DNA of 39,474 nucleotides. It comes from a virus. The notes beneath the pieces were generated by a model. The model saw nothing but the letters and a program-made list of their open reading frames with translations, did no database searches and was not told where the DNA came from. Made by a program: the position numbers and the translations under genes. This document shows, piece after piece, positions 16,304 to 16,371 of this stretch. The stretch lies in the IMG/VR virus record IMGVR_UViG_3300045988_140196. One strand, written 5' to 3'. Within the stretch, counting starts at the first letter, position 1; every line of letters begins with the position of its first letter.

Positions 16304-16328
16304 AAGAGCTAACAAATAGTTGGCTCTT
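16304..16328 (+). terminator. Hairpin AAGAGCTAAC / GTTGGCTCTT (terminator or attenuator)
   Basis: 10-bp stem with one G-U pair and a 5-nt loop. The U-tail is short, so termination strength is uncertain. Confidence 0.35.
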
Positions 16329-16371
16329 TCGACACATTTCGACAGCATTTGCAATTATTTTGTGATATACT
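16327..16371 (+). promoter_or_regulatory. Tandem TTCGACA (reverse Spo0A-box) elements plus extended -10 TGATATACT
   Basis: TTTCGACA at 16327-16334 and TTTCGACAG at 16337-16345 are spaced 10 bp apart. TATACT at 16366-16371 is preceded by TG. There are 21 nt between the box and the -10. Confidence 0.5.

Follow-up and report, generated by a model that had tools for sequence, protein, structure and literature searches.

Dimers of the phosphorylated sporulation regulator Spo0A (Spo0A~P) bind tandem 0A boxes head to tail. At the spoIIG and spoIIE promoters of Bacillus subtilis, tandem 0A boxes reportedly lie at about -40 and -50 over a -35-like element, with the -10 element at 21 to 22 bp, and spoIIG is said to be activated only when the proximal Spo0A protomer contacts sigma-A. 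The boxes of spoIIG are weak, which makes it a high-threshold promoter. Activation of spoIIG by Spo0A is documented (PMC2731898), and in the phages phi29 and Nf, consensus TGTCGAA sites for host Spo0A tie phage behaviour to the sporulation state of the host (PMC2731898; PMC12991052). Both phages are virulent, and their boxes are found at early and late lytic promoters and at replication origins, where they repress and arrest the lytic cycle. Temperate phages of Firmicutes also encode small regulators of Spo0A~P levels, including Rap-Phr, Spo0E, AbrB and YqaH of skin. Phage-borne spo0E, abrB and rap genes adjoin phage quorum-sensing systems, and many Spo0E matches are found in databases of gut phages (bioRxiv 10.1101/2021.07.15.452460); for the spo0E genes linked to quorum sensing, control through the quorum-sensing receptor has been proposed. 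In full-text literature searches, we found no account of prophage accessory genes with tandem-0A-box promoters. Here, we describe three promoters of a gut temperate phage (R1, R2 and R3) that we consider, with a probability of roughly 0.65, to be moron promoters of the spoIIG type activated by host Spo0A~P.

The window, as we call the whole 39,474-nucleotide stretch of viral DNA analysed here, is a temperate siphovirus-type genome of 39.5 kb with about 29% G+C. An integrase, an M78 peptidase, a candidate defence gene and a CI-like repressor occupy the minus strand (187-3536), and all remaining genes are on the plus strand, including ERF/SSB/DnaB-type replication genes, the terminase (17463-19248), the portal, a tail module with the tape measure at 28751-31720, and a holin and amidase endolysin module that ends at 38473 (endolysin 37613-38473). 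The candidate defence gene (2175-3152, minus strand) encodes a DUF3644 and restriction-endonuclease-like protein matching PADLOC candidate PDC-S19 (E = 5.6e-108), and its slot, with the CI-like repressor gene on one side and the M78 peptidase/integrase genes on the other, is filled by other genes in the prophage copies L145 and L146. An early gene (5327-5560, plus strand) joins a SpoVT/AbrB-type (MazE_antitoxin) domain to a zinc ribbon, and its predicted product could mimic an AbrB-like transition-state regulator.

TTCGACA, the exact reverse complement of the consensus 0A box TGTCGAA, occurs six times in the window (16328, 16338, 27992, 28012, 38345 and 38636), always on the plus strand and never on the minus strand, and this recount agrees with the first-pass annotation. 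The number alone is weak evidence because 4 of 100 shuffled versions of the window reach six copies (mean, 2.2). As for the enrichment that the first-pass annotation had left to statistics, it is the placement that departs from chance: five of the six copies are intergenic, whereas intergenic DNA makes up 7.6% of the window (binomial P = 1.4e-5). These five copies contribute to tandem boxes in a 10-bp register, co-directional with the downstream gene, in three regions that precede accessory genes, just as had been described. The sixth, rightly assigned to coding sequence, starts at 38345 on the plus strand within the endolysin gene, where its presence is probably incidental. All three regions hold 7-bp boxes in the same orientation separated by 3 bp, as an exact pair in R1, an exact and a weak box in R3, and three boxes in the 10-bp register with a degenerate middle one in R2. 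The gap from the proximal box to the -10 element is 21 nt at R1 and R3 and, ambiguously, 22 or 23 nt at R2, and a standard sigma-70 promoter scan with 16-18-nt spacers missed all three promoters. The switch and early-promoter regions (3537-4477) contain no exact box and one single-mismatch match (TTCTACA at 4130). The phi29-type layout, in which 0A boxes occupy early or late lytic promoters or replication origins, is not seen in the window, where all pairs precede accessory cassettes.

The first cassette is placed between the early region and the terminase and carries ORF195 (16397-16984; this and all other cassette features are on the plus strand). At its left edge, the hairpin AGAGCTAAC-AAATA-GTTGGCTCT (16305-16327) abuts the distal TTCGACA box of R1 (16328-16334, about -50 to -44). 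After the spacer CAT comes the proximal TTCGACA box (16338-16344, about -40 to -34), which overlaps the -35 region, and 21 nt further on lies the extended -10 element TGATATACT (16363-16371), formed by TATACT at 16366-16371 with TGA before it; the box positions relative to the start site, at R1 and R3 alike, assume that the -10 hexamer spans -12 to -7. A terminator-like hairpin (16989-17012) closes the unit. The ORF195 gene is present in 316 collection blocks, and the cassette with its promoter is 100% identical in eight metagenome contigs that differ in their upstream genes and terminases, the identity starting just before the left-edge hairpin. In homologues at 81% and 74% amino acid identity, the promoter reads TTCGACA-TGT-TTCGACA and TTCGACA-TTT-TTCGACA, then exactly 21 nt, then TGATATACT or TGATATAAT. 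Both boxes thus remain exact while the 3-bp spacer (CAT, TGT or TTT), the gap sequence and the flanks diverge, and the 21-nt gap is retained at the ORF195 promoters of loci L009 and L014. A more distant homologue, at 42% identity, has a different promoter that lacks the boxes. ORF195 itself gave no significant match in Pfam, NCBIfam or PADLOC and a weak one in PHROGs (phrog_19461), and its single-sequence AlphaFold model has a pLDDT of 37.

The surroundings of this cassette hold further elements. Just upstream, at 16222-16290, are four direct repeats of about 11 bp (AATTTCGCT, AACTTCGTT, AATTTCCTT and AATTTCGTT) followed by TGCTATAAT. At the same position, other phages carry three copies of ATGCTACC or two of AAAATTGGCGG, and the repeats co-vary with the gene immediately upstream, which is ORF183 in the window; the segment is probably a late promoter served by a phage-specific activator. 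We considered ORF183 as a sigma factor or as a regulator binding the boxes and set it aside, as it has no family match and the repeats that co-vary with it belong to the late promoter, not to the TTCGACA boxes. A tRNA-Pro(UGG) gene (17123-17198, plus strand; ARAGORN; Rfam tRNA, 53.5 bits) lies past the ORF195 cassette, ahead of the terminase genes.

The second cassette is an insertion that separates the tail chaperone gene from the tape-measure gene. Its cargo, ORF198 (28071-28667), is a membrane protein with weak DUF4190 and FxLYD/DUF7601 matches and a match to phrog_11491, and a terminator-like hairpin (28688-28713) follows. R2, which heads this unit, is atypical in having three boxes and an ambiguous -10 element. 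It reads TTCGACA-AAA-AATGACA-GAC-TTCGACA, with the first box at 27992-27998, a degenerate middle box in the 10-bp register at 28002-28008, where homologous promoters have a perfect or near-perfect box, and the third at 28012-28018, 20 bp from the first. The first-pass annotation had given gaps of 21, 23 and 21 nt for the three promoters, choosing at R2 the TATAAT at 28042-28047, which has no TG before it and lies 23 nt past the third box; a second TATAAT follows at 28048-28053. The 21-nt gaps of R1 and R3 stand, but the 23-nt value is one of two possible readings and is not secure, since a three-box homologue (L230) places its -10 element, TGATATACT, at the position of TGTTAAACT (28028-28036), a candidate extended -10 element 22 nt past the middle box and 12 nt past the third. 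Homologues of ORF198 (71-91% identity, 26 viral loci) have tandem boxes and the 21-nt gap in every case. Their occasional box variants (TTCGACT and TACGACA) leave unchanged the positions corresponding to G2, C4 and G5 of TGTCGAA, which matter for binding by clostridial Spo0A; a perfect 0A box predicts such binding (PMC3485338).

R3 and the third cassette follow the endolysin gene. The promoter reads TTTGACA-AGT-TTCGACA, 21 nt, TGTTATTAT. Its distal box (38626-38632) is weak, changing the G5-equivalent position, and becomes TTTTACA in variants, whereas the proximal box (38636-38642) is exact in all ORF40 variants. The extended -10 element (38661-38669) consists of TATTAT at 38664-38669 with TGT before it, so the two -10 elements that had been called extended are those of R1 and R3. 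Among ORF40 variants, the length of the 21-nt gap and the proximal box are kept and the gap sequence changes. The cargo, ORF40 (38691-38813), is 40 aa long, and a terminator-like hairpin (38799-38820) overlaps its stop codon. No direct match to ORF40 was found among Pfam, NCBIfam or PDB profiles (2bzb was returned at E = 1.4), and the matches listed in two large homology searches were all close relatives that carried no Pfam labels. However, the ORF40 family profile aligned with that of two Spo0E-like mini-proteins described below (L444 and L431) at an hhalign probability of 95.6% (E = 1.1e-8; 95.6-96.5% for the Spo0E-like set overall), and BLASTP gave 44% identity to L444 over 32 aa. The core S...DKYI of the family is preserved (QSMQMDKYI versus QSQKLDKYI), with the Ser and Asp, but not the Gln, of an SQELD-type motif, and Asp29 is the predicted catalytic residue of ORF40. 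ORF40 is thus probably a minimal Spo0E-like phosphatase of the PF09388 type with an anti-sporulation role, as judged from these profile comparisons. In a related prophage, a gene adjoining an ORF40 homologue (L017 6118-6441, minus strand) encodes an XRE HTH fused to a Spo0E-like domain that scores above the Pfam cut-off (31 bits).

Palindromes also occur near this end of the genome. One, AATTTCGCTATAGCGAAA (38510-38527), comes right after the endolysin terminator, is kept in L016-L019 and contains the AATTTCGCT unit of the late-promoter repeats. Another, TTTCACATATGAAAC, occurs twice (38827-38841 and 39132-39146), before the XRE-type HTH gene ORF66 (38894-39094) and before ORF50 (39188-39340), and is probably the operator of ORF66 in a small regulatory unit at the prophage end.

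Each of the three promoters therefore heads a single promoter-gene-terminator unit (ORF195, ORF198 and ORF40, respectively), autonomous and variably present between conserved modules, and the three cassettes are independent prophage morons. They resemble HK97/lambda-type morons in having their own promoter and terminator, in lying between functional modules and in occurring in otherwise different phages; they differ in that the promoter is a shared portable module, apparently keyed to one host developmental regulator and placed before different genes. That they make up a regulon is suggested by these shared sites. The likeness to spoIIG and spoIIE, as these are reportedly built, lies in tandem boxes over a -35-like element and an over-long gap to a good -10 element. 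Unlike at B. subtilis spoIIG, the -10 elements of R1 and R3 are TG-extended and the boxes, except for the distal one of R3 and the middle one of R2, are perfect consensus; moreover, these promoters lie on a prophage of an uncultured clostridial lineage, before accessory and not sporulation genes. With phi29 and Nf, the window shares the presence of consensus 0A boxes in a phage genome, but here they form tandem pairs in an activator position before the morons of a temperate phage, whose lysis-lysogeny switch has none.

The same architecture recurs widely in other contigs. A scan of IMG/VR that required TTCGACANNNTTCGACA alone, i.e., the tandem boxes without any -10 requirement, returned at least 120 loci. 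In contigs below 33% G+C, the -10 element lies exactly 21 nt past the proximal box in 35 of the 51 matches listed; 34 of these 35 elements are TG-extended, with a ribosome-binding site and start codon next. After de-duplication, they represent at least about 24 distinct promoter sequences, in which the gap shows no conservation beyond A+T richness. No spacing pattern was found among the high-GC matches listed from the same scan. When the full architecture was used to scan metagenomes, at least 118 loci with at least 73 different downstream N-termini were recovered. One promoter module was also found before different genes, in L044, L116 and L120 and again in L034 versus L080. The first-pass annotation had likened the over-long gap to spoIIG, and the persistence of 21 nt in diverged homologues and in these low-GC matches fits it well.

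Most of the cargo found under the tandem-box promoter elsewhere is small, comprising TM2/zinc-ribbon and other membrane proteins, ORF198-like proteins, lipoproteins and a family of 57-59 aa. This last family (e.g., MNEAYNKSLQMMKYLKIRLTRKQYTELAKRFNLLSIQSLQFMSKK...) has no Pfam match and is the commonest cargo (L338, L340, L343, L353, L383, L024, L030 and about 15 more loci). Spo0E-like mini-proteins are encoded at six loci (L125, L142, L339, L361, L431 and L444); that of L444 passes the Pfam SpoOE-like cut-off (24.5 bits), and the others fall just under it. At L359 (reverse strand), two boxes, a 21-nt gap and an extended -10 element precede a 157-aa gene for a stand-alone Spo0A_C domain (112 bits), which can have no receiver domain because of in-frame stop codons upstream. 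An identical arrangement at L392 (4046-5343, minus strand) precedes a gene for a membrane HisKA/HATPase_c sensor kinase; this locus adjoins aspS and glmS and is thus on a bacterial chromosome, not in a phage. The cargo of tandem-box promoters therefore appears to be enriched for parts of the Spo0A pathway. Where the quorum-sensing-linked spo0E genes of other phages have been proposed to answer to a quorum-sensing receptor, the Spo0E-like genes described here lie directly under tandem 0A boxes, which implies a putative negative feedback from Spo0A to the Spo0E-like product.

At the window promoters, a Spo0A~P dimer would bind head to tail to the two 7-bp boxes at about -50 and -40, which should face the same side of the helix since they are 3 bp apart, and the proximal protomer would occupy the usual place of the -35 hexamer. 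With the extended -10 element 21 nt downstream, sigma-A RNA polymerase should be unable to pair it with the -35-like TCGACA; the enzyme would instead depend on contact with bound Spo0A, as at spoIIG. The strictness of the 21-nt gap favours such a stereospecific contact over mere occlusion. Because the geometry matches that of spoIIG but comes with consensus boxes and an extended -10 element, we infer activation at a low threshold, and promoters with perfect consensus boxes would be expected to react already at low Spo0A~P levels, as the cell enters stationary phase or has just begun to sporulate. The prophage would thus probably switch on ORF195, ORF198 and ORF40 as its host heads towards sporulation. 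In addition, ORF40, as a putative Spo0E-like protein, may dephosphorylate Spo0A~P and would thereby form a prophage-borne negative feedback that delays sporulation of the lysogen. The link to host Spo0A that the first-pass annotation had suggested for the accessory genes gains support in silico from the promoter footprint, its recurrence, the mobility of the boxes, the lack of a Spo0A_C domain in the window and the pathway cargo.

A first alternative, itself unlikely, is that the boxes are operators of another protein, either a phage regulator or a different host response regulator that binds direct repeats, and that the 0A match is coincidence or mimicry. The chance that a random 7-mer fits the 0A consensus in one orientation or the other is about 1 in 8000. 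The first-pass annotation had named a phage-encoded regulator of the motif as what would overturn its proposal, and no Spo0A-type one was detected in the window: a six-frame HMM search for Spo0A_C (PF08769) gave a best E of 1.5, and Pfam found none on the early ORFs. Many of these early ORFs have no known fold, and the other cassette-bearing phages were viewed through their flanks only, which leaves the alternative some room. However, the boxes accompany the cassettes when these occur in phages with other neighbouring regulators, whereas the late-promoter repeats co-vary with the preceding gene. This mobility, together with the lack of a Spo0A_C domain in the window, favours a host factor. Other regulators of the window have candidate sites of their own, namely, the palindrome before ORF66 and the late-promoter direct repeats, and the same promoter type drives the chromosomal kinase gene of L392, outside any prophage.

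An argument for a phage regulator comes from a separate mid-GC lineage. Its contigs (35-60 kb, most 50-60 kb; about 34-37% G+C in the sampled loci) encode a 100-aa stand-alone Spo0A_C protein (PF08769, 41.6 bits), and among loci retrieved through this protein alone, a perfect TTCGACAnnnTTCGACA pair lies 3-4 kb away in 67 of 80 (L056 800-1102 on the minus strand and 3851-3867 on the plus strand; also L049, L063, L086, L098, L106 and L258-L337). The boxes there are invariant and their spacers variable, and they stand 17 nt from an extended -10 element before a membrane-protein/lipoprotein pair. This lineage shows the tandem motif accompanying Spo0A-type DNA-binding domains in phages, and a phage regulator is by the same token a real option in the mid-GC lineage and not in the window. 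A phage Spo0A_C protein was also the sole match, with no spo0A gene of the host among the results, when all retrieved DNA was searched by tblastn with a B. subtilis Spo0A query.

Close behind, and equally improbable in our view, is the possibility that Spo0A does bind but acts as a repressor or brake, such that the extended -10 promoters would be constitutive in lysogens and Spo0A~P at -40/-50 would silence the cassettes at sporulation. Extended -10 promoters can fire without a -35 element, so the boxes of R1 and R3, both with TG-extended -10 elements, could modulate or repress instead of activating. Repression through 0A boxes has precedents in phi29 and Nf (PMC2731898), and in the mid-GC lineage, with its 17-nt distance, TCGACA could be a true -35 element that is occluded by the bound protein. 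Yet plain occlusion needs no fixed 21 nt across at least about 24 unrelated sequences, and the boxes lie upstream of the -10 element and start site, not over them, at the -40/-50 position typical of class II-type activators. Finally, the idea that no dedicated regulator is involved, with ordinary sigma-A promoters in AT-rich DNA and TTCGACA as a chance-duplicated -35-like hexamer, draws on the 5/6 match of TCGACA to TTGACA and on a copy number that barely exceeds that of shuffles, but is highly improbable given a 21-nt spacer beyond the working range of sigma-A, an exact 10-bp duplication with both boxes conserved next to variable spacers, and recurrence in dozens of unrelated promoters.

Activation by host Spo0A~P, the reading that we favour, presupposes a host that encodes Spo0A. 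Proteins of the window have identical counterparts in a TPA 'Caudoviricetes sp.' MAG and are found on hundreds of human-gut metagenome contigs. No close cultured relatives were found in INPHARED by megablast with the window and two motif-bearing loci, the sole match being bajarodcaudo virus 4 at 4-11% cover. An integrated copy of the prophage adjoins sortase, HIT and mtaB-like genes, the last with 97% identity to Clostridium sp. CAG:245 and 96% to an uncultured Clostridia MAG, and the host is accordingly assigned, on these flanking genes, to an uncultured relative of Clostridium sp. CAG:245 among the gut Clostridia. The first 87 bases of the window are unlike the host flank of the integrated copies L144-L147, identity beginning at position 88, and the window is thus probably the excised or circular form, or else represents a different junction. 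NCBIfam detected no sporulation genes among ten host-flank ORFs, and no tandem-box promoter was present in 1.36 Mb of host-clade chromosomal DNA around one locus, where few would be expected. SASP genes are a marker of endospore formers, and one such gene adjoins a related prophage, not the window's own. Together with the Spo0E-like cargo, it gives indirect support to an endospore-forming host lineage.

On a wider scale, we tentatively propose, at somewhat less than even odds, that the temperate phages infecting low-GC Clostridia of the gut have in common a portable module, activated by Spo0A~P and made up of two perfect 0A boxes, 21 nt and an extended -10 element. They would place it before varied genes, including those for Spo0E-like feedback, and a second lineage carries its own Spo0A_C protein with cognate boxes. 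In the human gut, phages would then both control the sporulation master switch and be controlled by it, in a layer of regulation not described before. For many gut Firmicutes, persistence and transmission between hosts are governed by sporulation. If the proposal is true, the rule TTCGACA-N3-TTCGACA-N18-TGNTATAAT would predict prophage genes that are switched on at the onset of sporulation, even in uncultured organisms. Dozens of small proteins, including the Spo0E-like minis, the 57-59-aa family and the TM2/zinc-ribbon membrane proteins, would become candidates for modulating sporulation or the cell envelope in stationary phase. The module would also offer clostridial synthetic biology a compact and apparently strong Spo0A-responsive promoter. 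Most broadly, the paradigm of phi29, a virulent phage repressed by Spo0A, would extend to the activation of lysogenic-conversion genes in temperate phages.
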